A stretch of 64,000 nt of DNA, taken from Limnothrix sp. BL-A-16 (GTDB taxonomy: Bacteria > Cyanobacteriota > Cyanobacteriia > CACIAM-69d). The notes beneath the pieces are model-generated. The model saw nothing but the letters and a program-made list of their open reading frames with translations, had not been told where the DNA came from and ran no database searches. The stretch covers positions 3,264,001 through 3,328,000 of the forward strand of contig CP166615.1 in NCBI GenBank assembly GCA_041937175.2, written 5' to 3'. Positions 1-29,600 of the stretch are shown here, in pieces. Each line of letters starts with the position of its first letter. Within the stretch, counting starts at the first letter, position 1. Both the position numbers and the translations under genes were made by a program.

Positions 1-123
1 CAGCCGATCGCCCCAGGTTGTAGATTTCCGACACATTGCGTTACAAAATGACCGATCCTGACGGCGACGACAGCGGCCGCCCGCCCCAAACCTCCGCCTG
101 GGCCAGCATTTGAACGGGCATAG

Positions 124-1374
124 TTACGTCGCCAAAGCCGATCGAATTTCGGCATTCAGGCGATCGAACGGATTATCTGTTAGCGAAACCGTCACAATTC
201 CCTTCAAAATTCGGCGCAATTGATTCAACACCTCGTCAGGATTTTCCATGCGCGAAATACCCTTAAACTCATGCACCATTTGATTGCGATCGGCGCAGAG
301 ATTTTCAATTTTGTCTAAATCTTTCAGCAGTTCTTTCGAGTCAGGATAACAATCCAAAATCAGCCGCATGGTCAGGCGATTGGGAAAATAGCTGGTGCGG
401 ACGGCGCGATTTTTGGGGGCTGCCTGCTCTAGGGTGCGATAGACTTCACCGGATTTGAGAGCCTTGACCGCTTCCCAGAATCGATCGGTGTCGGCCTCAT
501 TTTTGGGAAATTCTGCTAGCTGCCCGATCGCGTATTTCAGCACATTTTCTTGGATGCCAAATACTCGCGTAAAAAAGGTGAAATAGTCGCGATTGTTCAG
601 CGACAACACTGCATTGAAATAGGCTTCCGCCAAAACCGTGGGCTTGTGTCCCGATCGCAGCTTGCCAATGTCCTTAGCCCAGCGATCGTCGATTTGGCCC
701 GCCAGATTCTGAATCGCATCGTTGGCCCCATGAAAGTCGAAAGCCTTGCGACAACGGGCATATTCCAACAACCCTTGCAGGCGATCGGTTGCTAACTGGC
801 TGGCTTCCAACTCCAACCAAGCACCGCTGTAGTTGTAGTCGGCAATTTGTTGCTCAATTCGCTTGCGATCGAACTCCTGCCGCAACACCAAAACATCAGT
901 CGCAAACACCCGACTTTGATTCGGCTGCATTTTCTCGGGATTGCGAACTTGCCACACTTGGCTGTTACCGGCATAGCCCGCCGCCTGCAACAAACTGAAG
1001 GCCGATTTCATCGCTGGCGTACCCGAAGAGGCGTTAAATTCAATGCGATCGCCTGGCTCCAGCAGTAATTTCACCTGCTCCAAACCACGCTTCGCTTCTT
1101 GGGCTGCCAATAACAAATCGGTCGGGTCTTTTGAGAGTTGATTGCTAGTGGGAATTAGCTCCACCGACAACCCCGATAATTGCGCTTCTGATTCGATATG
1201 ATCTTGGGTGTCGCGGGCGTTTTTGGCTGTGCCTTCCGTATGGAGCAACAGCACTTTTTTAATCGTTGTCCCCCGATTCAACAAAAATCGCAGCAAACTA
1301 ATGATCGATCCTTCGGTTTCCGTCGCGGCAAACGGATCTTGATTACCCACAAACGACAAAACAACACTAGCCAT
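124..1374 (-). CDS. Csm6-like CARF-HEPN ribonuclease (type III CRISPR ancillary effector)
   Basis: N-terminal CARF motifs LSFVGNQDP and NASSGTPAMKSA typical of Csm6; C-terminal HEPN RxxxxH (RNQMVH); last gene of the cmr run; ATG start chosen at MASVVLSF. Confidence 0.8.
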   Translation of the reverse strand: MASVVLSFVGNQDPFAATETEGSIISLLRFLLNRGTTIKKVLLLHTEGTAKNARDTQDHIESEAQLSGLSVELIPTSNQLSKDPTDLLLAAQEAKRGLEQVKLLLEPGDRIEFNASSGTPAMKSAFSLLQAAGYAGNSQVWQVRNPEKMQPNQSRVFATDVLVLRQEFDRKRIEQQIADYNYSGAWLELEASQLATDRLQGLLEYARCRKAFDFHGANDAIQNLAGQIDDRWAKDIGKLRSGHKPTVLAEAYFNAVLSLNNRDYFTFFTRVFGIQENVLKYAIGQLAEFPKNEADTDRFWEAVKALKSGEVYRTLEQAAPKNRAVRTSYFPNRLTMRLILDCYPDSKELLKDLDKIENLCADRNQMVHEFKGISRMENPDEVLNQLRRILKGIVTVSLTDNPFDRLNAEIRSALAT

Positions 1375-1422
1375 GATTTTGAGTTTAGAGAGATCGGCTT
1401 TAGTTTGGAGAAAAATCAACCA

Positions 1423-2085
1423 TCAATCGACCAGTTCAGATTTGGCTACGGGTCTCGTGTTTATCTCTGTTTGAATTTGGGCATAAAGCAATTGAGCCTG
1501 TCCCTCGATGGATAAACTAGATGAAATGCCAATCGCTAGACCAAGGAACAATCCCATCAGGAAAGTGCCTATAAATCCACTAAATCCTAGAAAACCACCC
1601 AAAACCAACCCTAAAAGCAGTCCAAACAATCCTCCAAAAATGCTATAGCCTAACAATAAAGATTTCGCTTGGTTGCGAAGTCTGGATGCTACTTTTAAGG
1701 CAAATTCGGGATTATAAACCAGTCGCATTTGATCAGAAGACTGTGATAATTCTGAGTACACTGATTCAGAGTATTGCTGATGAACTTCAGTGCCCGTTAA
1801 ATAAAAAATCTCATTCCAAATAGGTCTAAGTTGTCCAGTTTTTCTGGCTTCAAGGTTCAGAACTTCGATTCCTTCCGGTTGAATCGTTTTGAGGCCACGC
1901 ATCAGGCGATCGCGGATTTGTTCTAGTTGGGGTGGATTTTCTCCCTCAAAGGTCAGCTTCAGTTCATTGCCGTTGGTGCGGCCTTTACAAGTCCAGCCCT
2001 CTTTTTGGAACGATCGATTCAGCATCGCCGCGATCGCCCCTGGTTTGCCCTGTTTTGCCAAGTTGAGAAGCGTGTTATCTGCCAT
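1423..2085 (-). CDS. Uncharacterised membrane protein: soluble N-terminal domain plus two glycine-zipper TM helices
   Basis: N-terminus LAKQGKPGAIAAMLNRS (recurrent cyanobacterial module); hydrophobic GxxxG-rich C-terminal segments; ATG at MADNTLL. Confidence 0.7.
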   Translation of the reverse strand: MADNTLLNLAKQGKPGAIAAMLNRSFQKEGWTCKGRTNGNELKLTFEGENPPQLEQIRDRLMRGLKTIQPEGIEVLNLEARKTGQLRPIWNEIFYLTGTEVHQQYSESVYSELSQSSDQMRLVYNPEFALKVASRLRNQAKSLLLGYSIFGGLFGLLLGLVLGGFLGFSGFIGTFLMGLFLGLAIGISSSLSIEGQAQLLYAQIQTEINTRPVAKSELVD

Positions 2086-2148
2086 GACTGGATTCCTCCA
2101 AGGTTGATACACAACAAACGTGAAAAGGGCGATCGCAGAGCAAGCCAA

Positions 2149-2808
2149 TCACTGGCGATCGGAGATCACACTAGATCGCAACTGTTGGCGAAGCTGGGCT
2201 TCCGCTGCAATTTCATCTTGTTCAGAAGCCGCCAAAAATTGATAGAGCTGGGCTTTTTCGATTGTGGGAAAGGTGGGACTTTGGCTCAGTTCTTGATAGG
2301 TTCGATCAGTTTGGAGGGCATAAATTTTCCATTCCTGACCGTTGTAGCGCCAAAATTCAGGAATTCCGAGGCTGGCGTAGAGGTTGAGCTTGTCGATGTC
2401 GGTGTGGGTGATGTCAATTTCTACGACCAGATCAGGCGGTGGATCGGTGTTCAGATCAATAGTTTTGCCAGCGACTTTGGGTTGATTTTGAATGTAGTAA
2501 GCGAGGTCTGGTTCGGCGGCGCGATCGAGATCGGGGCGATCGAGCCTGGTCGATCCCAAGCTTTTGAGTTTTAGCCCCAGTTCTGCAACCAAGATGCGAA
2601 TAAACAAGCCGATTAATTCACGGGAAAATTCATGCAGTTCCAGGGGCATAACAAGTTCAATTTTGCCGCGATCGTAGGTTAGCCGCACCGATCGTTCTTC
2701 CCCCAACGCGGCTAGCAAGTGGCGATATTGTTCAGGGGTGCGATCGCATAACAAAAAACGCTGCTCTGCGATCGGTCTAGATAGTTTGGACTGAATCAAA
2801 ACAGTCAT
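2149..2808 (-). CDS. Uma2 (DUF820) family PD-(D/E)xK endonuclease
   Basis: Motifs RLTYDRGKIELVMP, EPDLAYY, PPPDLVVEIDIT, GIPEFWRY. Confidence 0.9.
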   Translation of the reverse strand: MTVLIQSKLSRPIAEQRFLLCDRTPEQYRHLLAALGEERSVRLTYDRGKIELVMPLELHEFSRELIGLFIRILVAELGLKLKSLGSTRLDRPDLDRAAEPDLAYYIQNQPKVAGKTIDLNTDPPPDLVVEIDITHTDIDKLNLYASLGIPEFWRYNGQEWKIYALQTDRTYQELSQSPTFPTIEKAQLYQFLAASEQDEIAAEAQLRQQLRSSVISDRQ

Positions 2809-2835
2809 AGTCTTACAAAGCCCCTATTGCAGTCA

Positions 2836-4323
2836 TTACAGCTCATTAACTTCCTCAACTAGTTTCTGATGTACCAAAACCATCAGACTGGCAACACCAT
2901 CTTCATCATCAACTTGATCGATTAACTTGAAGTTTTGATCAGAAATAAAATTTAGGCAATTCAAAACACACTTTTTCCAAAGACTTTCAGGATCAAAGGC
3001 TCTGGGATCAATTTTCCAAGCCTGGAAAACGGATTCTTTTCCTTTTAATCCTGAAAGTTGATGAAATAAGTCATTTCTATTCTTAAATACATGATTCCCA
3101 AACGTCCATATATCTAGATTTCGTGATTTATCAATTCGCTTCTCAAGGTTAAGGGCAAAATATAAGTCTTTTCCATAGCGATTGAGATTCTTTTCTCCGA
3201 TAGTGATAACTCTTGATTCAGCAGGAAATTTCCGATCAGCCCATTTTCGCAATAGTCCCTCAACAGCCCGAAAGCTGTGGAACATAGCTTCCACAGTGTC
3301 TACGCGCTCCAGGCGCTTCACGGCTAGATAAGCAGACTCATAGGCTGTTGACCACCACAATTGCTTTCTTTGAAGAGCCAAGTCATGAAAGTAAGGAATT
3401 AAACTTAGCGTGTCAAAGAACTTGTCGAATTCTGCAAAATTCCACTGAATTGCAGCCTCCAGCAATAGGCTCAGCTCTTGAGATAATCCAAAATTGAGCA
3501 ATTCTTGAACTGCTGCATAATTGCCAAATTTCAGTAGCTCTCTTGCTTGTTGCTTTTTAATTCCGCGCAGATAGCTAGAGCTTTCAATGAACTGCGCTGA
3601 GTTTTCTTGAGTGTCGCTTGTCTTGAGATTATTTTGATTTTCACTGGTGACTAAGAAACGTACGCGATCGCCAAAGTAGGACAAGGACATAAACTGCACA
3701 GCCGAAGAAATAGCCGGTGTGCTAGCCTGATGGCTCACGTACACTTGCTCAAGCTCGCCATCAGTTGCCAGTAGATCATTATTTAAAACGGCAAATTTTT
3801 GGCGCACCAGCTCCAGTACTGAATCCCAATTATCCAAACTGTCCGCAACAGTCTCTGGTTGCAAAACAATTGGCTCTACTACTTGAGCATTCGGCAACTG
3901 CTCGCTAAAGTAGCGCTTTAAAATTGGGAGCAGTTCAGAAGTATCTTGCCAATACGGGCTTTTTACCCCTCGTTCAGTCCGACCATCTGCAAAAATCTTG
4001 GATTGGTCAGTCAGGACTAGAACGATTTGATTTAGTTCACCAGGCTGCCGCACTTTCCGAGTGAAGTTTTCTAAAAGAGGAAAAACCAGTTGGCAAAAAA
4101 TAGTGCTTTGGATCTCTGATTGATTTTGATAAACAGACCCAAGAACCCGTGCAGGAACGCGAAGCACTTCATCATTACTTTTAAAGTGAATCTTCTTAAA
4201 ATCTACATGATACTTCTCATCATAATCTACTTCAAGACACTCATACCAGTCATCCCAGCAAGAGTTTCTTTTCAACTGAATATCGCTGCTGCCGATTGTC
4301 AAAATCCAAATCTTAATCTTCAT
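2836..4323 (-). CDS. Divergent CARF-like/HEPN effector (Csx1/Csm6-like)
   Basis: N-terminal WILTIGSSD strand-loop; VSHQASTPAISSA resembles the second CARF motif; helical middle; HEPN RNDLFH; starts 4 bp after the cmr6-cmr1 stop. Confidence 0.65.
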   Translation of the reverse strand: MKIKIWILTIGSSDIQLKRNSCWDDWYECLEVDYDEKYHVDFKKIHFKSNDEVLRVPARVLGSVYQNQSEIQSTIFCQLVFPLLENFTRKVRQPGELNQIVLVLTDQSKIFADGRTERGVKSPYWQDTSELLPILKRYFSEQLPNAQVVEPIVLQPETVADSLDNWDSVLELVRQKFAVLNNDLLATDGELEQVYVSHQASTPAISSAVQFMSLSYFGDRVRFLVTSENQNNLKTSDTQENSAQFIESSSYLRGIKKQQARELLKFGNYAAVQELLNFGLSQELSLLLEAAIQWNFAEFDKFFDTLSLIPYFHDLALQRKQLWWSTAYESAYLAVKRLERVDTVEAMFHSFRAVEGLLRKWADRKFPAESRVITIGEKNLNRYGKDLYFALNLEKRIDKSRNLDIWTFGNHVFKNRNDLFHQLSGLKGKESVFQAWKIDPRAFDPESLWKKCVLNCLNFISDQNFKLIDQVDDEDGVASLMVLVHQKLVEEVNEL

Positions 4324-4327
4324 AACA

Positions 4328-6115
4328 TTAGTTCCTTCCCCAAACTAGTTGAAACTCTGCTGGATCAGTTGATGAGGATTTCAAAAAATCAAGAAACTCT
4401 CTACATTCGTTAGAGTCGTCCAAGAAAATTGTTAAAATCTCGAAGAATTGATCAGTTTGAATAGCCATTTTCTCTCCTGGCTGATTAGGATTGTCAATTA
4501 AGCAAATTTTAGGATACATGCGATGGATAACTCTACCAATAGTAGATTTGTCAGATTCAACTAACCCCGTTAGAGAAGTCTTGTAAATTGATTTCTCCTG
4601 CTCAGTCTTCAAAATTGCCCGTTGATAAGGCTTATGAAACCAAGACACTGCACGAGAATCACTCATACCTTCAGCCAAACGTGCCCACACTTCAACTTTG
4701 CTAGGATGCCAAGACTCTCGCCAATTTTTAGCCCATCGATCTGATTGAATGGTTAACTTTTCTTGCTGTTCGAGCCATTCACGTTTCAATTCCATCCATT
4801 CACTCGCTGTTGATCGAACACTATCTAAAAACGAGCAAATGCTTTTAATACTCGAAACACTCCTATTGAGTCTCCGGCTCTTTTCATCTGACCACTCCCA
4901 ATGGCAACCAATTAGAGGCTTATAACCGCGAGAATTTTGATAGTAGACATTCCAAAATTTTTGGTGATCAACTCGTCGCCAAGATTTTCCGAATCCACCT
5001 AAAAATAAAGCAAACTGCATCAGCTTTTTAATTAGCTTTGCTAGTGTTTTTTCGTGATGAGAATCATCTAGTGATCGATTTAGAAGCCAAACCAAATTCC
5101 CTTCAACAACATACTGTCCTGAAGGAAAAGGTTCGACATTTGGTGGCAACGGGTGAAACTGGAATCCAAGTAAACCAACAGTTGGTTTGTTAGATTGAAT
5201 CCCTCCAAAAAGGTCTTCAACTAGTCGCTCTGCTATTTTACAATCTGTCAAGCCACCAAATAGACGCAAAGCATGGCCTCGCAATGCAGCACGAAAAATA
5301 TTAGGGCGAAACTCAGCTGAGCCATCTAGCAGCTTGGGGGCTTGCCCTTGACCCTTGAGTTTTGCTGAATACAAAACCTTACGCACCTTAACAGATGTCG
5401 CTTTCACAGACTGCCCATAGCCCGTGGCAGTCTTAGAACCCAAGCCAACGGATAGTGCTCGCTCCCAAATTGTCCAAATCGTTTGCCACTCAGCATTCAA
5501 TAGTGGTTGATTACTCGAAATGGCAAAACGCAACTTTGGCTGATACAGTGAAACCATGGAATAGGCCGTTTCACCAGACGGCTTTTTATCTGTTTTCATG
5601 GTTTTAACCTGCCATTCTTGCTGAGGGTGAACAAGGTCAATTAGGCCCTTTGTCCAATCATTGGTTGGATAAGCACCAAGAAAGCGCAGAATTCCGGGGC
5701 ATAGATCGGTTTCTTTGCCGCAATAGCGATCAGTGCTGCCTACCAACACCATTCCTAATGCCTCGGCCTGCTCACAGGCACTCCGAAACGCCCCCTTCAT
5801 ACTGCTGCCTGGATAGAACGGAATTCCCGCCTTCCCCAAAACCGGCCGAATAATCCCATCATCCTGACCTCCATTAGTGACAAATCGCCAGGAAATTTGA
5901 TAGGACTTAGCACTATAAACCGGTGTTTGTTCGTCCTTAGCATCCCGAGCAGGAATCTGTTCAGCCTTGTCAATCCACTCATTAACCCACTTATCAATGT
6001 CGCGTGGTTGGCCGTCTTTAGTTTTACCTGCATATTGCAGTTTGGATCGCCCATCAATCTGAGCGCGAAACATCCTCGGTACTTCTTCATAGCTGTCAGG
6101 AATCGCTGGCATCAT
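4328..6115 (-). CDS. cmr6: Cmr6-Cmr1 fusion RAMP protein (type III-B variant)
   Basis: Two RAMP units: GIPFYPGSSMKGAFR...GLGSKTATGYG (Cmr6-like) and FRPNIFRAALRGH...LGGFGKSWRR (Cmr1-like). Confidence 0.85.
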   Translation of the reverse strand: MMPAIPDSYEEVPRMFRAQIDGRSKLQYAGKTKDGQPRDIDKWVNEWIDKAEQIPARDAKDEQTPVYSAKSYQISWRFVTNGGQDDGIIRPVLGKAGIPFYPGSSMKGAFRSACEQAEALGMVLVGSTDRYCGKETDLCPGILRFLGAYPTNDWTKGLIDLVHPQQEWQVKTMKTDKKPSGETAYSMVSLYQPKLRFAISSNQPLLNAEWQTIWTIWERALSVGLGSKTATGYGQSVKATSVKVRKVLYSAKLKGQGQAPKLLDGSAEFRPNIFRAALRGHALRLFGGLTDCKIAERLVEDLFGGIQSNKPTVGLLGFQFHPLPPNVEPFPSGQYVVEGNLVWLLNRSLDDSHHEKTLAKLIKKLMQFALFLGGFGKSWRRVDHQKFWNVYYQNSRGYKPLIGCHWEWSDEKSRRLNRSVSSIKSICSFLDSVRSTASEWMELKREWLEQQEKLTIQSDRWAKNWRESWHPSKVEVWARLAEGMSDSRAVSWFHKPYQRAILKTEQEKSIYKTSLTGLVESDKSTIGRVIHRMYPKICLIDNPNQPGEKMAIQTDQFFEILTIFLDDSNECREFLDFLKSSSTDPAEFQLVWGRN

Positions 6116-6116
6116 C

Positions 6117-6545
6117 TCACTTCCCAATTTTGTAACGCTGAGTCCACCAAACCAAGCAATCGCAAAGCTGTGTCAAAACGGCGATCGCCACTCGTTGATC
6201 TTCAATTGATAAAGACCAAAGTTTTTTGGAAACTTCTTCAATCTTTTTGGAAGCTTCTGAATTTTTTAAATCAACAGTGTCTTTAGGCAATAGAATTCCA
6301 GCGTCTTCCATTACTCCACAGAAGGCATCCCACGTATCTTTCCAATATTTAGATTTTGCCACCTCCAGATTCTCTTTTTTATTACCACTAGCCAAGCGCA
6401 AATGTTCTCCCCAAAATCGCTCTAGTCCATAGGCCACGGACATACGCATTTTGTGGGATTGATTCATAGAGTCTGGATCACGCTCACGTGCTGACAACAC
6501 CAATTTCTGCGCAACACGATCAAGTTCATAGGACTTCCAAGTCAT
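6117..6545 (-). CDS. cmr5: Cmr5 small subunit
   Basis: 142-aa helical protein between cmr4 and cmr6; conserved-looking C-terminal LVWWTQRYK. Confidence 0.75.
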   Translation of the reverse strand: MTWKSYELDRVAQKLVLSARERDPDSMNQSHKMRMSVAYGLERFWGEHLRLASGNKKENLEVAKSKYWKDTWDAFCGVMEDAGILLPKDTVDLKNSEASKKIEEVSKKLWSLSIEDQRVAIAVLTQLCDCLVWWTQRYKIGK

Positions 6546-7357
6546 TACTGGTCACCTCCTGAGAGCAACACACGACAGCGACCAAAGCCAATGGATTCGA
6601 GTCCACCAAAATAGATTTCAGATTCCTTATGCTCTCCAAAGGGTTCCCATCCGTGTTCTTTTAAGGCAATAGGAAAAATCATAATGCTCCCTTCTGGTAA
6701 AGCTTCAGTATTGAAAAATGCCCCCTTCGTAACCTTTTTCTCAGCATCATCGAGTTTGACTCGGCTTTGACGATAAAGTGCCATGTCATGCAGCATGGAA
6801 ATATCATTGTCATCAACGACCACGAGCTTATTTCGATCTAGATCAATATCAGCAGGCACCCAAGGAGATAGATCAGCCGTATTCGTAATCTCCAAAAATC
6901 CAAGATTGAAGAACAGAATTTTTCCTCGTCCTTGAACTTGTCGTCCTTGTAGCCCTTTTGGTGCAGTGTAGGGTGCAGGTACATCGGCTTTGATGCCTGT
7001 AATCCGTTTATAGCGCTTGAGCAAAGATGGGCAACTCACCCAAACCACCGGCTGTCCTGGACAGAAAACTGGAAACCAAACCAATGAAGCATATTCAAAC
7101 TTCACCAAGGCTTCAGTAGTTCCGCCATCTGGTTGATTATCTACAGCTTCATGACCATACCAGTAGTTAGTTGCTGTGCGATCCGAACCCCGCATCTCTG
7201 CCCGAAAGCGACCACGAATCGAACTACCGGGAATAATGCCGGTTTGGGTGAACTGATCCCGAAAGATTAGGTTCAAATTACCGGTTTCTTCACCCGCCGT
7301 TGCCCCCACATGCAACGGGGCAAGGGTTTCAATTATGCCGAACGCTCTGTTGTACAT
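6545..7357 (-). CDS. cmr4: Cmr4 (Cas7 group RAMP)
   Basis: APLHVG, IPGSSIRGRFR, FFNTEALPEGS, G-rich loop FGGLESIGFGRC. Confidence 0.9.
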   Translation of the reverse strand: MYNRAFGIIETLAPLHVGATAGEETGNLNLIFRDQFTQTGIIPGSSIRGRFRAEMRGSDRTATNYWYGHEAVDNQPDGGTTEALVKFEYASLVWFPVFCPGQPVVWVSCPSLLKRYKRITGIKADVPAPYTAPKGLQGRQVQGRGKILFFNLGFLEITNTADLSPWVPADIDLDRNKLVVVDDNDISMLHDMALYRQSRVKLDDAEKKVTKGAFFNTEALPEGSIMIFPIALKEHGWEPFGEHKESEIYFGGLESIGFGRCRVLLSGGDQ

Positions 7358-8445
7358 TCTGGGACTCCTTGAATTTCAACCGGTAAACATAGACCACATC
7401 CCAATTGCTTGAGTGAAAATCCTTCCTTGGGAAACCACTCTTCAGGAAAATCCCACCAGGTCATGTTTAAAGGCTCGCGGAAAACATAAACACTGCCACT
7501 GGGAACGGCATACCGCCCTCGCCCTAGTCGCCGCCCTTTTCGAGGATCATCTTTGTTTTGACCCACTCGATAGCGATAGGGCACAGGTTTATCCATCAAC
7601 AACTTGAGGTCACGCTTCGGGAAACTCGGATGTTGTGGATAACGATAGGAAAGGTTATTTGACCCCCAAACGGCCGGAGTGATTAAGGCAAAAGCATGAG
7701 AGATTTTTTGAGCTAGCAACCGATTTAATGGATGTCGCTCGTTAATTGGTTTAGTTTCAATCTCTGCCAAATGTCCTTCGCCACCAAGCCGATACCAACC
7801 ATTGAGATCAATAGTTTCCAAATTAGTTAAGTAAACTAGGCATACATCTTCAGGAAGTTGAACAGCATTTTCCAAAAACAAGCCATCTTCATGCAATACA
7901 TGACGCTCATCATTCCGCATTTGAGTATGTAGGAATGGGGTTGATTTCCAGGGAGATGATCTAAGAGACTGATCGTTTTCTTTAATTTCCTCGTTAGTCC
8001 AGTTCCAGGTATTAATGCGTTGCCAGATGGTTGATGCTGAACCCTTAATATCTCCAGATCCTCGATGCCAGCGATATTGATTGAGATATTGACTATTTGA
8101 CTGATTGGATTGTCGTGCTAGCGACCACTCATCTACTGATGCCCATTTATTTTCGCCTGTTGCACCAATGATCCGATGACGAGGCATAGGCACATAAAAG
8201 TCTTTAGGACTCCTGGTGTATGCCCAAAATGGTCCCGCAACCACTAGTTCTTGTTGAAGTAGGCTTGGATTCATGAAGTTTTGAATTTGATTTGCACCCA
8301 AAATTAGTCCAGATATTGCAGCAGCATCGGGAGGAAATTTATAGTTGGATTTGCCTACCAGACTGCCTATCGACAGAAATCCTCCAGAGCTGGCATACAT
8401 AAAGCCCAATGGAGAAATAGTCACTAGAGATTTGAATTCCGACAT
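7333..8445 (-). CDS. cmr3: Cmr3 (Cas5 group RAMP)
   Basis: ISPLGFMY, FPPDA, VAGPF, RLGGEGH, YAVPSGSVY, LGCG; overlaps the cas10 and cmr4 ends. Confidence 0.85.
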   Translation of the reverse strand: MSEFKSLVTISPLGFMYASSGGFLSIGSLVGKSNYKFPPDAAAISGLILGANQIQNFMNPSLLQQELVVAGPFWAYTRSPKDFYVPMPRHRIIGATGENKWASVDEWSLARQSNQSNSQYLNQYRWHRGSGDIKGSASTIWQRINTWNWTNEEIKENDQSLRSSPWKSTPFLHTQMRNDERHVLHEDGLFLENAVQLPEDVCLVYLTNLETIDLNGWYRLGGEGHLAEIETKPINERHPLNRLLAQKISHAFALITPAVWGSNNLSYRYPQHPSFPKRDLKLLMDKPVPYRYRVGQNKDDPRKGRRLGRGRYAVPSGSVYVFREPLNMTWWDFPEEWFPKEGFSLKQLGCGLCLPVEIQGVPECTTERSA

Positions 8446-10181
8446 AATTGCCACCCTACTTCGATCAGATCATCTACCCACATGATGAAGCGAAAGCCTT
8501 TATCTACAAACTCGAGATTTCCAAAGAATTTATGCAGCCCATCTCGCATTACTGCACTCCAAATTCTAGAGCTTTGATTCTGGAAGTACAAATCAAAAAT
8601 TGTCTGGGCTACGTCACGATGTATAGGGCGATATTTCTTCGGATCGAGCAAAATAGCATGGCGATCCTTTAAAGCAGCCCAATCACTGTAGATATGACTC
8701 CAGTTCGCTTCAGCACCTGTTTTGTTGTTACGATCGCAATAGCTATCCAAAATTGCTAGCTCATCCCAGGGGCAAGTCCATTGCACAAATCGACCGCTGT
8801 TGAACACGATGCGGATGGTGACTCGATCGCGCCCTAGGTTTTTTGAGCGTTGTTCAGCTTCTCGGCAATGCTGCAAAATATCGCGTTGTGGAACCTGATG
8901 ACCAGCCCAAACAAACCCCACGCTATACGTCAGCTTAAATCCCAATTCGTGCTGCGTATCTGCTTGGATTTGTTGCCATTTCTCGGGGAGCTTTTTTAGC
9001 CAGTTCCATGCTTCAATCGGCTGAACTTTTGCTGGCAATTTATTTGAGTTACTAGGCTCTTCGCTATAAAGAACACCAAGAAAGTCATCCCCACCAGCAT
9101 AAATCACACGCCCCTTTCCCTCAGGAAATAGCTCTTTTGCTTTGGCAAACTTTTGCCCCCAATTTCGCATTAAGGTTGAAAATCGTTGAAGATTGCGATC
9201 ACGTTTTTGGGGGCTATCAGGATAGCGATTAGCCAGGTCAGTTAGTTTGTCACCCACCTTGTCACCATCGCCCATAAACCAACCTGTCCAGTAATCCTTC
9301 TCGCGGTAAATATCGCGAAACGACGTTTCAGGATGATCAATGCCAATATCAAGCGCTAATGGCTCAAAGGTAACAAGGCGTTTTGCCAGCTCAGGAATGC
9401 TCAAGCGTTCGCGGGGGCTGATAAATTTCCCGCCGTCATTATCTGGATTAGCAAAGTGATCCTTCAGTTCCTGATCAGAAGGAAATGATTGATGGCAGCG
9501 CTTAAAATCATCCAAAATCCAGGCTAAGCGAAGATAAAAACGCTCGATATCCTGTCTTTCGCTGGCTGAAAACGATCGCCCTGGATTGTTGTCAGGTTTG
9601 CCCAATCCGGGCCAGGCGATCGCATCAGTTCCCGTAATACTGGAGCTTTCACCAACCCAATTAATCCCAATCCAATCCCGCTTCAGCTTACGAGTTTCCA
9701 AGTCCTCCATCGCTGATTGGGGTGTTGTGCCATAGCCCCAAAACACTTCCCACGCATAGAGTCCCCAGCGCTCCCACTCACCGGCCCCACGCCGATCGCC
9801 CGGGATGGGCTGTGACCAAAAGTAGGACTCACTGGGTAGGTTCTGCTCAATCCAGCATCGGCAAGATTGAAGGAGCATTTGCCAATGCTTGAGCAGACTC
9901 TTTTTGACATCATGGCGCTTAATTTTTGGCCCTTTCAGCAAAATGCGATTGGGCATACCTCTTTGATGATCAATGCAGGCAGGGGAAATTACTTCAGCGC
10001 TCTGCCCATCTGCATTTCGGGTTAGGTCTTCAATTAGTTTTTGGCTCAGATAGGACAAAATTTGGGAAGCGCCAAACAAATCACGCAACTTACGAGACTT
10101 TTCGATGAACCCTTGGACGGGCGCAAAACTAATGGCGGTGTAAATGACGGCGGAATCAGACATCTTCTGTTCTGAAGTCAT
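8424..10181 (-). CDS. cas10: Cas10/Cmr2 large subunit, short HD-less form with intact palm cyclase motif
   Basis: Starts directly at ISFAPVQGFIEKSRKLRDLFGASQILS; GDGDKVG and VIYAGGDDFLGV (GGDD); no N-terminal HD domain; 585 aa. Confidence 0.92.
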   Translation of the reverse strand: MTSEQKMSDSAVIYTAISFAPVQGFIEKSRKLRDLFGASQILSYLSQKLIEDLTRNADGQSAEVISPACIDHQRGMPNRILLKGPKIKRHDVKKSLLKHWQMLLQSCRCWIEQNLPSESYFWSQPIPGDRRGAGEWERWGLYAWEVFWGYGTTPQSAMEDLETRKLKRDWIGINWVGESSSITGTDAIAWPGLGKPDNNPGRSFSASERQDIERFYLRLAWILDDFKRCHQSFPSDQELKDHFANPDNDGGKFISPRERLSIPELAKRLVTFEPLALDIGIDHPETSFRDIYREKDYWTGWFMGDGDKVGDKLTDLANRYPDSPQKRDRNLQRFSTLMRNWGQKFAKAKELFPEGKGRVIYAGGDDFLGVLYSEEPSNSNKLPAKVQPIEAWNWLKKLPEKWQQIQADTQHELGFKLTYSVGFVWAGHQVPQRDILQHCREAEQRSKNLGRDRVTIRIVFNSGRFVQWTCPWDELAILDSYCDRNNKTGAEANWSHIYSDWAALKDRHAILLDPKKYRPIHRDVAQTIFDLYFQNQSSRIWSAVMRDGLHKFFGNLEFVDKGFRFIMWVDDLIEVGWQLCRNSNL

Positions 10182-10200
10182 GTTGAAAGTCCCGTGGCCT

Positions 10201-10313
10201 AATCAAGCTTGAAGCGACTTGATTGTTTTCACATCTGTGCCTTGGCTACCATCCTAAGGGATGCATCCCCTAAGCGAGGTGTAAGTTTTGATATTGTTTA
10301 TTAAGCAACATCA
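10201..10313. promoter_or_regulatory. Divergent cas10/WYL promoter region with three inverted repeats
   Basis: AATCAAG-N10-CTTGATT (10201-10224); perfect GGGATGCATCCC (10258-10269); imperfect TGATATTGTTTATTAAGCAACATCA (10289-10313). Confidence 0.5.
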
Positions 10314-10408
10314 ATGCTTGTAAGGCTTTGTGTTGTTGGGTTTGGCGCGATCACCCTCTGGCCGGGAAAATAATATTTCTGGGTAGGCGGACGGCTGGAG
10401 ATGTGTTA

Positions 10409-11575
10409 ATGGCAACCCGATCGCATCATGGGTACGAGGAGCCGATCGCCTTCGATCGCCTGCTGCTGTTGGCGGCCCTGTTGGCTCAGGAGCCGGGCAG
10501 CGGAGCGATCGAAGCGGGGGGCTTGGCTGCGATCGGGGCGGCCCTGCGCGATCGGGCGACGGCCCTGGGGCGGCCCTTTCCGGCAGATTACCCCTCGATT
10601 CCGACCTTGCGGAAGGATTTGGCCACCTTGCGGGCCTACGGACTGCTGGGCGATCGGATGTATCGCTGGGGCTATTACCTAGGGGTGGGTGGGCTGTCAG
10701 CGGCGGAACTGACGATCGCCCTGAATGGGTTGCGGCTGATGGCGATCGACCTGGGCGATCCACAGGTGGCCCAATGCTGGGAGGCGATCGAGCGGCGGCT
10801 GAAGTCTTGGGATGCGGAGGCCAAGGGGCAACTCACCTATCTGCTCCGGCGATCGCTCTCGCGCCCCGTGAGTGAGCAAGACCCGATCGCCCGGATGCAA
10901 CGGGGTCAAGATTGGGATCGGCTGGCGGAACGGTTGGAGGCGATCGAGCAGGCAATTTTGACCGGCCAGGCGATCGAACTGAAGGTGGCCCGCTCACCAC
11001 ACCCGGACGATCGGGGCGATCGGGAGCGGCTCTATCCGTTGCAGTTGCTGTTTTACGACGTGGGTTGGTATTTGCTCTATGAAAAAGTGGATTCGGGCCA
11101 GTTTGCCACCCGGCGGATCGATCGCCTGAGTGCGGAGGTGCGACCGTTGCCGTTGCCGCCCCGGGGCTTACGGATCCAATGGCAACGGCTGCGGAAAGCG
11201 ACGGATCTGCTTTCGGCCGGTTGGGGACTGTTTTTAGGGGAAGCGACGGAACAGGCGCAGGAGTTGGCGGGGCGGGAATCGTTGGTGTCGGCGGCGGTGC
11301 GGTTTTGGCGGCCGACGGCGGATTTTATTGCGGAGGGCGATCGCCGCCACCCATCCCAGGAGATGAGCTGGGGAAGTTCGACGGGCGAGGGGCGCGATTG
11401 GTTGGATTTTCGGGTGCGGTTGCCGAGGCGATCGATCGCTGAGTTTGGGCGGTGGGTGCGGCGGTATGGGAGCGATGCGGTGGTGCTGGAGCCGCCGGAG
11501 TTGGTGGCGCAGTTTCGGCAGATGGCGATCGCCCTGGCCCAGGCCTATGGGGTTGGGGCAGGCGGTTCTAGCTGA
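10409..11575 (+). CDS. HTH-WYL-WCX transcriptional regulator divergent from the cmr operon
   Basis: wHTH motif TLRKDLATLRAYG; WYL motif YPLQLLFYDVGWYLLY and RRIDRL; WCX tail WVRRYGSDAVVLEPPEL. Confidence 0.88.
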   Translation: MATRSHHGYEEPIAFDRLLLLAALLAQEPGSGAIEAGGLAAIGAALRDRATALGRPFPADYPSIPTLRKDLATLRAYGLLGDRMYRWGYYLGVGGLSAAELTIALNGLRLMAIDLGDPQVAQCWEAIERRLKSWDAEAKGQLTYLLRRSLSRPVSEQDPIARMQRGQDWDRLAERLEAIEQAILTGQAIELKVARSPHPDDRGDRERLYPLQLLFYDVGWYLLYEKVDSGQFATRRIDRLSAEVRPLPLPPRGLRIQWQRLRKATDLLSAGWGLFLGEATEQAQELAGRESLVSAAVRFWRPTADFIAEGDRRHPSQEMSWGSSTGEGRDWLDFRVRLPRRSIAEFGRWVRRYGSDAVVLEPPELVAQFRQMAIALAQAYGVGAGGSS

Positions 11576-13874: not shown

Positions 13875-14016
13875 GGGTGTGTCGTCAAATCGCCTGAAAC
13901 CCTGATTCCACCGTTGGCAGATCGTGGAAGACAAGATGCTCAAGCCCCTTGTGACGACGACTGGGACATGTAAAATCAATCGTTTCTGCCTGATCCTAGG
14001 AAATGACGACAGACCC
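13875..14016. mobile_element. 142-bp MITE, full copy A
   Basis: 13-bp terminal inverted repeats GGGTGTGTCGTCA / TGACGACAGACCC (12/13 match), TA on both flanks, homologous to copies at 23.5, 29.5 and 44.0 kb. Confidence 0.75.
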
Positions 14017-14152
14017 TATTTCCTAACGTTATATTTGCGCCGTTTTAGCGCTAGTTTGGCGCTGTTCTGGTGCTTTGCGAGGGTTCGCTCACGCCACCTC
14101 ACTGCTCGATCGATTCATAACTGCCGAATCTGTTCCTCAAGAATTTCACCGT

Positions 14153-14905
14153 ATGCTGGCCAGCGATCGCGCCCTGAAATTTAATCCCCTGGATGCGGGG
14201 CAACCCAGCCGCATCCTGATTGTTGAAGACGAAGAACTGATTCGCGATATGGTTGCCGCGGCCCTGCGCGACGAGGGCTATGAAGTATTAGTGGCGGCCG
14301 ATGGGGCTGCGGCCTTGAACCTGTTGAATCTGAACAATCCCGGCGACATGAACCGCCCGCCCGACTTGATTGTTCTGGATTTGATGTTGCCCCGGGTGAA
14401 TGGGCTGGATCTGTGTCGGCTGTTGCGCCAGCGCCAAGATCCCGTGCCGATTTTGATGCTGAGTGCTAAGGGCAGCGAGACCGATCGGGTGTTGGGGCTG
14501 GAAGTGGGGGCTGATGACTACCTCACGAAGCCCTTCAGTATGCGGGAGTTGGTGGCTCGTTGCCGGGCCCTGCTGCGGCGCAATCGGATCGTGAGCGCGG
14601 CCCAACCGGAAGTGCTGCGCTATCGGGATATTGAACTGTATCCCCAGGAATGCCGGGTGGTGGTGCGAACTCAGGAAGTGAACCTGTCACCGAAGGAATT
14701 TCGACTGCTGGAATTGTTTGTGCAACATCCCCGGCGGGTTTGGTCTCGGGAGCAATTGCTGGAGCGCATTTGGGGCATTGACTTCATTGGCGACAGCAAA
14801 ACCGTTGATGTGCATATCCGCTGGCTGCGAGAAAAGATTGAGCTAGATCCCAGCACGCCTGAATACATCGTCACCATTCGCGGCTTTGGCTATCGATTTG
14901 GTTAG
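14153..14905 (+). CDS. sphR: Phosphate regulon response regulator SphR/PhoB (OmpR family)
   Basis: Receiver domain (VEDE, LDLMLP, DYLTKPF) plus winged helix (KTVDVHIRWLREK); adjacent to kinase and phoU. Confidence 0.88.
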   Translation: MLASDRALKFNPLDAGQPSRILIVEDEELIRDMVAAALRDEGYEVLVAADGAAALNLLNLNNPGDMNRPPDLIVLDLMLPRVNGLDLCRLLRQRQDPVPILMLSAKGSETDRVLGLEVGADDYLTKPFSMRELVARCRALLRRNRIVSAAQPEVLRYRDIELYPQECRVVVRTQEVNLSPKEFRLLELFVQHPRRVWSREQLLERIWGIDFIGDSKTVDVHIRWLREKIELDPSTPEYIVTIRGFGYRFG

Positions 14906-16445
14906 TGTCCTAGTCGGTTTAGGACTGGGGCTAGGGGTTGGGGTGTGGCAACAGGCGCGGCTGCGTTCTCGCCTGATGCAGCTTTTTGCGCCCATTTTGG
15001 CCGATGAGGTGGCGATTCCGTTGGGGCTGGAGTCCTTGGTGCGGCGCGGAGTGGTGGCGGCGCTCGATCGGGAAGTGGCCCTGGAGTCTCAGCTCGAAAT
15101 CTGGGAGAAGGCCCTGGCGGCGGCTCCGATCGCCTTTCTGTGGGTCGATCGCGATGATGGCCTACGGTGGTGCAATGATCGGGCCCGGGAATTGTTCGCC
15201 ATCCGTCAGTGGCAACCCAGCCAAGACCGGCTCTTGATTGAGGTGGTGCGCTCCTACGATTTGGATCAGTTGGTGCAACAAACCCGGCGGGGCCGGCTCA
15301 CTTGCCAACGGGACTGGACTTTTTATGGGGATCCACGGCCGGAACCCACGGAACCGACGGAGGGCCCGGAGTTCAGCGACCACGGGACGATCGATCCGCC
15401 ATTGCCGGGGCCGGGAACCGCCACCAAGGGGGTGGGGCTGGCCCTGCGGGGGTGGGGAATTCCGCTGCCCCATGGTCATGTGGCGATTTTTGTGGAAAAT
15501 TGCCAACAGATGGTGGATTTGGCCCGCAGTCGCAACCGGTGGATTAATGATTTGGCCCATGAGTTGCGCACGCCCCTCACGTCCATTCAATTGGTGTTTG
15601 AAACCCTGCAAAAGCAACTGGAACCGCCCTTGAGCCATTGGGTTGATCGGGCGATGCCGGAAGTGAAACGGCTGGTGCGCTTTGTGCAAGATTGGCTGGA
15701 TTTGAGCCAAATGGAACAGAATCCGGGGCAAATTTTGCGTCTGGAGGTGTTGGACTTGGTGGAGGTGGCCCAGGCGGCTTGGCAGTCGGTGGAACCCTTG
15801 GCGGAACGAAAATCGGTGGCCCTGGTGCTCGATCGGGATGGGTTAGATCATCTTTGGCTCCAGGGCGATCGGGCCAAGCTCCATCGGCTGCTGTTGAATC
15901 TGCTGGACAATGCGATTAAGTACAGCCCGGAAGGTGGGCAAATTTGGCTGCACATTTCCCAAGATGCGCCGGCCTTGACCTTGCCCCAGCCGCCCAAGGA
16001 GTTAGCGGAGGAATTGGCGGAGGAATTGGGTTTGGCGAGCCAGTCGGGCGATCGCGCCTCGGAGTCTGACCCGCACTGGGCCGCCGGAGCGCCCCAGCCC
16101 AACCCCCAAGCGGCCAGCGACTCCCCCGACCCAGACAATGACCCGATCGCCACCTGGGCCTATGCCGACGTGATCGATATGGGGCCCGGATTTTCGCCCA
16201 CGGATTTACCTCACATTTTCGAGCGGCTCTATCGCGGCGACGCTTCCCGCACCCGCGAAACCGATGCCATGATTGCGCCCCAGTTACCCAGCACCGGCAG
16301 CGGCCTGGGGCTAGCGATCGCCCGGCAAATTGCGATCGCCCATGGGGGACAAATTACCGGCAGCAACGACCCCAAAACCGGCGGCGCAAGGCTGCGGGTG
16401 GCCCTGCCGATTCGGGCCATCCGTCAACCCCTGGATGATCTGTAG
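14886..16445 (+). CDS. sphS: Phosphate-sensing histidine kinase SphS/PhoR
   Basis: N-terminal TM, PAS-like region, H-box LAHELRTPL, N-box NLLDNAIKYS, G-boxes DMGPG and GSGLGL. Confidence 0.88.
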   Translation: MAIDLVSVLVGLGLGLGVGVWQQARLRSRLMQLFAPILADEVAIPLGLESLVRRGVVAALDREVALESQLEIWEKALAAAPIAFLWVDRDDGLRWCNDRARELFAIRQWQPSQDRLLIEVVRSYDLDQLVQQTRRGRLTCQRDWTFYGDPRPEPTEPTEGPEFSDHGTIDPPLPGPGTATKGVGLALRGWGIPLPHGHVAIFVENCQQMVDLARSRNRWINDLAHELRTPLTSIQLVFETLQKQLEPPLSHWVDRAMPEVKRLVRFVQDWLDLSQMEQNPGQILRLEVLDLVEVAQAAWQSVEPLAERKSVALVLDRDGLDHLWLQGDRAKLHRLLLNLLDNAIKYSPEGGQIWLHISQDAPALTLPQPPKELAEELAEELGLASQSGDRASESDPHWAAGAPQPNPQAASDSPDPDNDPIATWAYADVIDMGPGFSPTDLPHIFERLYRGDASRTRETDAMIAPQLPSTGSGLGLAIARQIAIAHGGQITGSNDPKTGGARLRVALPIRAIRQPLDDL

Positions 16446-17512
16446 CGCTTGACGATCGGGCGCAATCCCCAAAAACACCAACAACCGGGGCGATCGAGCT
16501 GTTTGGTAGCCAACAGCACCCCAACCGGTGCAGAAATTTTGAACAATCATCTCAGGGGCGACTCTTCCCGGGATTGCGGCAGATCAGCCCACTAAAGTTT
16601 GGTTAAATTCCCACTAAACTTCTGAGCTGGAACCCCCATCTTAAGAAAATATAAGATATAAAGGAAAGGCAATCTTTTGACATGCATCCATTAATTTCTC
16701 ATTTCCATTCCCCTTTTTACCGAGGCATTTTTATTCCAATCCTTATCCATCAGACAATCGCCAATTAGTCCAATGGCAGCCTTGATTAATCCTAGATTGA
16801 TCTTTCGCAGATTGTCCTTTCATGAACCTTTGATCAGACAACAGCATGAGTCATTAAGTATGAGTCATTAATCACCCCAGTCGATGTTTCGTCATCATTC
16901 CTTGCGATCTTCCCGATCGCTCAAAAATTGTCAAATCCATCAAGATTGATTGGAGTTTGACCCAGCAATCCCTAATTCTATTTCTGTCCGTTGCCTAGCA
17001 GCTTCCCAGAAACTTCCCGGAAATTTTTCCAGTACTTTTGGATCAGCCTTTCCCTAGTCATCAAACTCTCGGCGCGATCGGCTTTGTTCAAAATTTCTGC
17101 CCGAATTTCTGCCCAAAATATTCATAGCCAAGCGTCAAGCCCCTAAGCCACACTCATCTTTCTTTGCCAGACCCCAAACCAAGAGCCAGCAATTCATCAA
17201 GAATTTATGGTGCGATTCATGGTTTTGAGCCTTCGCTTCCCCCGATCACGCCATTCGTGACTCCTCCATCCTCTAGCTCTTTTTCTCATCTCTTCTCATC
17301 GATCAATGTAGCTCGTAGGCTTTTAGGGCATTGGTATTTTGGTTCTTTGAAGTGAGTGTTTTCAATAGAACTGAGCGGGCAGGGTCATTGCGGGGCAAGG
17401 TCTAAATTCAAAAGAAAATCATCAACAAGACATCATCATGAGCCGATGATCACGGTTTCCAAAGTAGGGTTGGGGCGAGCTGTTGATTCATTCCGTCGTT
17501 TATGAAGGTTCC

Positions 17513-18208
17513 ATGATTGCTGTAGACGTGAAACGATCTTTGTTTTCCACTGCTTCGGGTGCGGCCACCAAACCGACGGCGATCGAGCGCAAAATCAAGC
17601 GAGTTTGCCAAGATGTGCTGCGGATGGGAGCGCTGGTTGAGGATTCGTTTCGCCTCACTCAGCAAGCCCTGTTTGCCCGCGACCTATCCACGATCGAGCG
17701 GATTAATGCCCTCGAAGACCGCATCGATGCGTTCTATCGCCAAATTGAACTCGACTGCGTGGTCACCATGACCCTGAACGCTCCGGTGGCGGAAAATTGC
17801 CGCTGGCTGAGTGCCCTGATGCAGTTGGTGCGGGACTTGGAACGCATTGGCGATTATTCCCAGGATTTGGCGGACATTGCGGTGCGCCTGTTTCCCTATG
17901 GGCCCCATCCCCATTTGGAGGAGGTGGAAGCCATGGCTCGCCAAACCCTAACCATGTTGGGCATGAGTTTGGCGGCGTTGGTAGAACCAGATCCGGAGGC
18001 GGGGGCCCGGCTCCAGGCGGCGGACAATGTGGTGGATGAGGCTTACGATCGCCTCTATAGCCTGTTGGCCACGCAGCGGGATGTGCCGGGGCCGATCGAG
18101 CCGGTGTTGCTGATGGTGCTGACCATTCGCCACATTGAGCGCATGGCCGACCATGCCACCAACATCGCCCAACGGGCCTCCTATATCGTGACGGGTCACC
18201 GCCCCTAG
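17513..18208 (+). CDS. phoU: Phosphate signalling protein PhoU (SphU)
   Basis: Two PhoU repeats: RDLERIGDY and HIERMADHATNIA. Confidence 0.92.
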   Translation: MIAVDVKRSLFSTASGAATKPTAIERKIKRVCQDVLRMGALVEDSFRLTQQALFARDLSTIERINALEDRIDAFYRQIELDCVVTMTLNAPVAENCRWLSALMQLVRDLERIGDYSQDLADIAVRLFPYGPHPHLEEVEAMARQTLTMLGMSLAALVEPDPEAGARLQAADNVVDEAYDRLYSLLATQRDVPGPIEPVLLMVLTIRHIERMADHATNIAQRASYIVTGHRP

Positions 18209-18307
18209 CCATCCCCTGAGAGGATGCCTGATCAGCCAGAATGTCCACTCCGTAAGCCCCAGCGATCAACGAAGACAAGGGGCTTCAGGCCCTTGCCCCC
18301 ACGACCC

Positions 18308-29421: not shown

Positions 29422-29488
29422 GGCAATGTCAAGCCCCTTGAAAGCAAGGCGCTGGCAACGGCCAAATCGACCGACCTAGAAGCATATG

Positions 29489-29600
29489 GATCGTGGGGGA
29501 CAAGGGGCTTAAGCCCCTTGTTACGGCGACTAGGGCATGGAAGATCAATCGTTTCAGCATCACCTCGAAAAATGACGACACCCCCTAAGCCCCTTGCCCC
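29489..29600. mobile_element. MITE partial copy D plus flanking half-palindrome
   Basis: Palindrome at 29501-29520; right TIR TGACGACACCCCC (29573-29585); followed by TAAGCCCCTTG. Confidence 0.7.

Follow-up and report, generated by a model that had tools for sequence, protein, structure and literature searches.

A short-Cas10 type III-B CRISPR lineage of cyanobacteria as a candidate signal-only sensor paired with Csm6-type RNases

We analyzed a 64,000-nucleotide stretch of Limnothrix sp. BL-A-16 (contig CP166615.1, positions 3,264,001 to 3,328,000; hereafter the window), which opens with a type III-B CRISPR operon encoding a short Cas10, Cmr3, Cmr4, Cmr5, a Cmr6-Cmr1 fusion and two CARF-HEPN RNases, CH1 and CH2. 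Judged from its motifs, the complex would be a sensor and cyclase that leaves killing and shut-off to the two RNases, with its own cleavage activity presumably absent; we give this reading a probability of about 0.6. At even odds, the same holds for a widespread III-B lineage, present in roughly one in eight sampled genomes, which would be a pure sensor with no slicing, no DNase and a messenger as its only output. Such a lineage would have given up its built-in off switch and would leave killing as well as reset to Csm6-type RNases, perhaps by way of cyclic hexaadenylate (cA6), so far not tied to III-B. In its close relatives, an HD-armed core would take the place of the short one, while the regulator, RNase and array around it stay the same.

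The absence of slicing is read from Cmr4. The alignment places GNLNLIFRD of the window protein against the canonical VDLPIQRE, with N29 at the position of the catalytic Asp. This column holds Asn in all 53 Cmr4 rows from loci with a short Cas10 (the short clade) and Leu, Met or Val in 29/29 rows of the long clade, Synechocystis included. A Cmr4 profile search gave 150 representatives, 133 of which held the motif; the 104 canonical ones carry Asp (102) or Glu (2), whereas none of the 29 cyanobacterial-type ones has Asp in the motif window. In a quick tree of 97 rows, a single branch with support 100 sets all 60 Asp-less rows apart, and the rows of the short clade group together (95). A single origin of Asp-less Cmr4 is allowed, not shown, by this tree, in which long branches meet. 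The D26A substitution abolished cleavage by Pyrococcus Cmr4 (PMC4333402), and in type III-Dv the Asp holds the catalytic Mg2+ (PMC11026444). On these alignments, it appears quite likely that the window Cmr4 does not cleave its target. The EEY motif has also lost its first Glu (T217 here), but this was dropped as evidence of non-cleavage, since Pyrococcus E227A had no effect (PMC4333402).

The start of the window Cas10 aligns with that of the HD-less Thermus Cmr2, and the protein retains DGD at residues 305–307 and YAGGDD at 361–366. To define the lineage, Cmr4 was compared across 401 cyanobacterial genomes; matches above 50% identity occur in 49 of them, its own included, and the remaining matches fall below 40%, with a gap between. 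Loci were fetched for 49 of the 51 other members of the close group (two short contigs were left out) and for a hand-picked 31 of the 91 weaker matches. The short Cas10 proteins (489–662 amino acids) have an intact GGDD and no HD domain in 46/46 full-length cases. The other main group, to which CRISPR3 of Synechocystis sp. PCC 6803 belongs, has a Cas10 of about 1000 residues with an N-terminal LHDP motif in 19/28; the Synechocystis protein has 979 residues and reads WGLLHDP. For this reason, an HD-less Cas10 cannot serve as the defining mark of the CRISPR3 type, as an earlier note on this DNA, made from the sequence alone, had proposed. The published description of III-Bv gives the Cmr6/Cmr1 fusion and the lack of Cas6 (PMC6546367); a long, HD-bearing Cas10 is no part of that definition, and on our comparison its absence from the window marks a sub-lineage within III-Bv. 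Taken alone, HD loss is ordinary, because HD is found in 39% of 1113 type III loci (PMC11229360) and Thermus Cmr2 is equally short. Nine long Cas10 proteins have no LHDP motif (L086, L091, L095, L102, L103, L105, L108, L110 and L112), so HD may also be decaying within the long clade. A third cyanobacterial Cmr lineage (L094, L097, L106) has a Cas10 of about 740 residues and a Cmr4 loop reading GNNNP, also Asp-less, and the quick tree places it as sister to the short clade.

The fusion protein has its Cmr6 half first, as profile matches on Thermus and Runella Cmr6 indicate. A direct TIGR01894 scan of the fusion gave no match for the Cmr1 half. Direct detection having failed, its identity was established by a two-step profile link: HHalign matches it over its whole length to the corresponding half of the Synechocystis fusion (99.3%, E 2.7e-20), and a clade profile of that half matches Thermus Cmr1 (E 3.6e-6). 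The locus thus has the Cmr1-Cmr6 fusion characteristic of III-Bv as well as the type III-B gene set of Cas10/Cmr2 with Cmr3, Cmr4, Cmr5 and Cmr6. The Asp-less Cmr4, the HD-less Cas10 with GGDD and the fusion had all been noticed earlier and are borne out here.

CH2 combines CARF, 6H and HEPN domains with an RxxxxH motif, as expected of Csm6, and its family profile matches Enterococcus italicus Csm6 over the full length (E 7.9e-11), with all three domains aligned. The R and H of the motif are invariant in 26/26 aligned homologues. CH1 gave no direct match to solved structures and shares no BLAST similarity with CH2; HHalign identifies it as a distant homologue of CH2 (99.6%), and its R416, N417 and H421 are invariant in 30/30 aligned homologues. 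Recognition of effectors relied on BLAST clusters and on scanning 147 neighbours with PADLOC, many of the fetched stretches being cut. Within these stretches, 42 of the 49 short-core loci hold a recognized effector, with one family in 37, two in 4 and three in 1; CH1 is present in 26 of the 49 and CH2 in 2. Other partners of the short core are CARF-RelE, CARF-TM (TM, transmembrane), Csx1 and Csx3, which have been linked to cyclic tetraadenylate (cA4; PMC11229360; 10.1101/2024.09.24.614671). Because short cores also pair with cA4-linked effectors and Csx3, their messenger is not fixed as cA6. At two short-core loci (L060, at 3047–3916, and L082), a two-helix membrane protein (PADLOC Mem_02) is the sole candidate effector.

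Among 19 CH2 loci of the genome collection, CH1 lies directly upstream in 5, a long-type core is present in 7, and csx18, cas1 or cas2 follows in 13. By gene order, CH1 is linked to the short core, and CH2 belongs with the array and adaptation side. The effector cassette is not unusually expanded, as had been suggested, since the tandem of two RNases recurs in those 5 of 19 loci and several effectors per locus are common in type III (PMC11229360). According to the same survey, Csm6 is found only in III-A loci.

In the mechanism we propose, the array transcript would probably be matured by host RNases, as in CRISPR3, with no cognate Cas6. By analogy with its family, the Cmr complex would bind complementary invader RNA; with Asn29 in Cmr4 it would not slice this target, and its sequence has no HD DNase. 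The palm, whose motif is intact, would produce cyclic oligoadenylate, which in turn would activate the two Csm6-type RNases, whose family and active sites are recognizable in the sequence. Their activity would arrest the cell and degrade invader RNA. For shut-off, the target held by the complex would be removed by these RNases, which may also break down the messenger that activates them, as studied Csm6 enzymes do; the latter occur without ring nucleases (10.1101/2024.09.24.614671). An abortive-infection-like outcome is conceivable, and dormancy with recovery fits Csm6-type enzymes equally.

Several observations weigh against this mechanism, first of all in Cmr4. Its loop is one residue longer than the canonical one, with a shifted register, and carries the conserved E23/E24, which might replace the catalytic Asp. 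The alignment-based model is good overall (pLDDT, predicted local distance difference test, 87.9) and matches Cmr4 chains, with values below 50 at loop residues 22–27; a single-sequence fold reached only 30.6. Since the catalytic loop is of low confidence, the structure leaves the Asp question unsettled. The complex could thus still slice through a rebuilt site, using E23 or E24 with the aid of N29, or a site in the fusion, in which case two RNases would simply accompany a conventional III-B system that lacks HD. Short-clade rows show no variation at E24 and N29, 91% of 85 rows from the cyanobacterial clades have D or E in the E23 column, and the loop is flexible. Target slicing normally ends Cas10 activity (PMC11734703), and a dead Cmr4 led to autoimmunity and toxicity in Saccharolobus (PMC9368842), which also speaks for retained cleavage. 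We nevertheless regard a rebuilt site as rather unlikely, given the complete lack of Asp in the cyanobacterial-type representatives, the E23 column being non-acidic in 6/85 rows, and the fact that our literature searches found no substitute catalyst in print.

Other difficulties for a signal-only complex lie outside Cmr4. No recognized effector was seen nearby in seven of the 49 short-core loci; three of them (L038, L051 and L078) come from genomes that have another type III locus as well, which fits the sharing of effectors in trans among type III loci (PMC11229360). No Csx3 or APE2256-type CARF gene was detected in the genome, in searches whose positive controls matched; Csx20, Csx15 and Crn2 were not searched for, and a Csx16 search gave no match anywhere and hence has no weight either way. 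Since studied Csm6 enzymes degrade their own activator and do without ring nucleases (10.1101/2024.09.24.614671), the simplest assumption is that the RNases bring about the reset. In relatives with a long Cas10, defence persists when single accessory genes (PMC6546367) or Csx1 (PMC11855584) are missing. The HD domain may explain this defence, which would then be no test of the short core. Finally, the spacers have no targets in phage or plasmid collections.

Comparison with relatives reveals a mosaic locus. In L153, a long-type core directly precedes the membrane gene and CH2 (84% and 92% identical), with an identical repeat and 87% nucleotide identity to window positions 124–2117. In L156, an HD-type Cas10 core stands between DNA matching window positions 10222–10476 and 1985–2117; L153 and L156 both hold an HD-type core, and nucleotide identity at 10222–10476 is 78%. 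In G220, of the same family, the WYL gene (52% identical) flanks an HD-type core, CH2 is present and the repeat is that of the window, and L152, L154 and G402 carry a short core with CH1. The exchangeable stretch extends from about 2120 to about 10220 of the window. As these relatives show at the level of sequence, the resident frame consists of the WYL gene, membrane gene, CH2 and array, within which the core with CH1 swaps as an exchangeable cassette. The GC content is no guide to the direction of the swap, because the short core (0.41–0.47, compared with 0.55) and the long cores of L153 and L156 (0.43–0.54) are both low. The presence of two RNases needs no special design, since one came with the core and the other belongs to the frame.

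The frame has also lost genes. Where the window has a cas2 remnant, G402, of the same genus, has csx18-cas1-cas2; on this comparison, window positions 41–112 are the scar of their loss. The remnant and the array just outside the window were missed in the earlier note. L152 and L154 are likewise without adaptation genes, and no Cas1 was found in the genome (rated 100% complete) by a search whose controls were positive in 7/14. These losses would suit a decaying locus that no longer protects, its missing residues being mere degeneration. Such decay has only a slight chance of being correct: all nine open reading frames are intact, the 25 repeats of the array are identical, and in 46–53 rows from many families neither the Cmr4 loop nor the Cas10 motifs vary.

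It had been proposed that two to four downstream effectors carry out the killing. The two CARF-HEPN RNases with their intact RxxxxH motifs uphold the lower figure. For all four to be activated killers, the Uma2 and membrane proteins would have to respond to the messenger as well. Both genes share the orientation of the rest of the operon. The membrane gene stands at the type III locus in G402 and in 5/5 metagenome loci, beside CH2 whichever core is present. Uma2 genes occur inside several other cyanobacterial cmr operons, Uma2 is listed as an accessory gene in PMC11855584, and the window Uma2 matches the PADLOC candidate PDC-S17. Against this, family scans and the Atlas revealed no nucleotide-sensing domain in either protein (the Atlas has no family for the membrane domain). 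Uma2 is best regarded as a passenger, because the genome holds 57 copies and the gene is missing from this place in the close relatives L152, L153 and L154; it is present in a contig of run X2. The membrane gene is present in 0/49 short-core and 0/28 long-core loci of other genomes, 77 in all, and its N-terminal domain is found in 33/41 genomes. The protein has 12 homologues of similar length, the named ones being from Limnothrix. The cyclic oligoadenylate-gated membrane effectors Cam1, Csx23 and CorA join a transmembrane part to a sensor domain and recur at type III loci, a combination that the window protein does not display. On its distribution, the membrane gene is a stable, lineage-restricted resident beside CH2, without support as an effector, and a four-effector design appears very improbable. 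In the long-core operons L087, L096, L098, L100 and L158, Uma2 genes stand between cmr genes, up to five or six per locus. In the homologues P0160–P0162, the N-terminal domain of the membrane protein is joined to an unrelated C-terminal part, the first part of P0160 being almost unchanged, which suggests domain swapping.

The closest studied system, CRISPR3 of Synechocystis (III-Bv, plasmid pSYSA), shares with the window the order cas10-cmr3-cmr4-cmr5-fusion, the Cmr6/Cmr1 fusion, the lack of a cognate cas6, a related repeat with the same 3' end and a Cmr4 without Asp. In that strain, RNase E and RNase J mature the CRISPR RNA (PMC12464536). It differs in its HD-bearing Cas10 (979 versus 585 residues), in a Cmr4 that is 33% identical and belongs to a separate clade, in the absence of an annotated Csm6-type RNase beside it, compared with two in the window operon, and in its adaptation genes, lost in the window locus. 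By their description, the III-B clusters 3–5 of Microcystis aeruginosa FACHB-524 (PMC11855584) also have a cyanobacterial Cmr, a Cmr6 of fusion length and CARF and Uma2 accessory genes, but the assayed cluster has a longer Cas10; in E. coli, cluster 4 confers protection against T4, which Csx1 increases (PMC11855584). The HD-less Cmr of Thermus thermophilus HB8 has an equally short Cas10 (584 residues, no HD, GGDD), whereas its Cmr4 retains the Asp and its Cmr1 and Cmr6 are separate genes. The CH2 family aligns with III-A Csm6 (E. italicus 6TUG; Csm6' 8PCW) over CARF, 6H and HEPN; CH2, however, stands beside a III-B core. Subtypes III-G and III-H likewise lost the catalytic aspartates of Cas7 naturally (PMC12669027), but they keep HD with predicted DNA cutting, while the window lineage lost HD and kept the cyclase.

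Already known are III-Bv, HD-less Cas10, several effectors per locus and Asp-less Cas7 combined with HD in III-G/H (PMC12669027). New here are the core swap and the sorting of the effector cassette into RNases and passengers. Our literature search, which covered mostly open-access main texts, found no paper on Asp-less cyanobacterial Cmr4 or the short-Cas10 lineage, although such an alignment may stand in supplements. If the signal-only reading is true, type III immunity can be run and reset by ancillary RNases alone, without slicing and HD DNase. Cas10 signalling is held to be timed and brought to an end by Cas7 slicing of the target (PMC11734703), and removal of slicing was toxic in an archaeal model (PMC9368842). 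A compact Cas10 complex that naturally does not cut could also serve directly for RNA sensing, and strains differing only in the core offer a natural comparison of HD-armed with signal-only defence. If Cmr4 does cut, it would do so with an active site undescribed so far.

The features of the locus are collected in Table 1. The earlier layout of nine co-oriented genes with a divergent WYL gene agrees with the open reading frame list, and the family scans (Pfam, PADLOC) label cas10, cmr3, cmr4, cmr5, cmr6, two CARF1-HEPN proteins, Uma2 and WYL/WCX. With the likely ATG starts, the gene junctions are overlaps of 22, 25 and 1 nucleotides and gaps of 1, 4, 27, 63 and 48.

Table 1. Features of the type III-B locus, in window coordinates.
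Feature	Position	Strand	Basis and remarks
WYL-WCX transcription regulator	10409..11575	+	Pfam WCX and WYL; likely ATG 10409, longest open reading frame from 10328; GC 0.65; divergent from cas10
Short Cas10/Cmr2, 585 amino acids, no HD, DGD and GGDD intact	8424..10181	-	PADLOC Cas10b, E 3e-195; motifs
Cmr3 (Cas5)	7333..8454	-	Pfam Cas_Cmr3; likely ATG 8445
Cmr4 (Cas7 backbone), Asn29 at catalytic-Asp position	6545..7357	-	Family scans, alignment, model matching Cmr4 chains
Cmr5 (Cas11)	6117..6545	-	PADLOC Cmr5, E 2e-60
Cmr6-Cmr1 fusion, Cmr6 half first	4328..6127	-	Profile matches; likely ATG 6115
CARF-HEPN RNase 1 (CH1), RNDLFH at 416-421	2836..4323	-	PADLOC CARF1-HEPN, E 1e-111
Uma2-family PD-(D/E)xK protein, putative passenger	2149..2808	-	Pfam Uma2
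Membrane protein, 220 amino acids	1423..2085	-	Common cyanobacterial N-terminal domain and hydrophobic C-terminal stretch; likely ATG 2085
CARF-6H-HEPN RNase 2 (CH2), Csm6 family, 416 amino acids, RNQMVH	124..1374	-	PADLOC, E 8e-141; likely ATG 1374
cas2 3' remnant, 23 codons, 21 identical to G402 Cas2	41..112	-	Comparison with G402
Array leader, beginning	1..40	-	Adjoins array outside the window

The CRISPR array (G000:C1:3261978-3263843) ends 157 bp before the left edge of the window; it is on the operon strand and consists of 25 identical 36-nucleotide repeats, GGCCCCACTCGCTGGGGCCCCCACTTGATTGGAAAC, with 24 spacers of 34–46 nucleotides. The repeat is CRISPR3-like, being identical to the Synechocystis CRISPR3 repeat at 25/36 nucleotides, with a 5' stem and the GATTGGAAAC end; the stretch after the stem is C-rich here and AU-rich in Synechocystis. 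No self match of the spacers exceeds 22 nucleotides, and their base skew (14/24) is uninformative. Promoter and terminator scans gave matches at no more than chance level, and RNA run X1 yielded only 8 short contigs, which do not show transcription.

In a genome search, the window locus was the sole RAMP (repeat-associated mysterious protein) locus found. No cas6 is present among its genes, and the single Cas6 encountered is part of a type I-B locus more than 1 Mb away, no genome-wide search for the Cas6 family having been made. That locus (MYXAN-like, with WYL and Cas6) lies at about 2121100-2132400 of G000:C1 (L149), and a type I-C locus is found at about 621700-629000 (L148). An array with I-B-type repeats at C1:4391302 has no recognized cas gene adjoining, one open reading frame having been scanned.

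Beyond the operon, window positions 14075-18208 return to a host-like GC content and carry what we take, from the look of the sequence only, to be a response regulator, a sensor kinase and a PhoU-like gene. A dispersed palindromic repeat family with the core AAGGGGCTTAAGCCCCTT occurs in the window at 13916-13961, 18260-18305, 29485-29530, 44012, 45858, 45972 and 63725, and tandem copies are found elsewhere in the genome.

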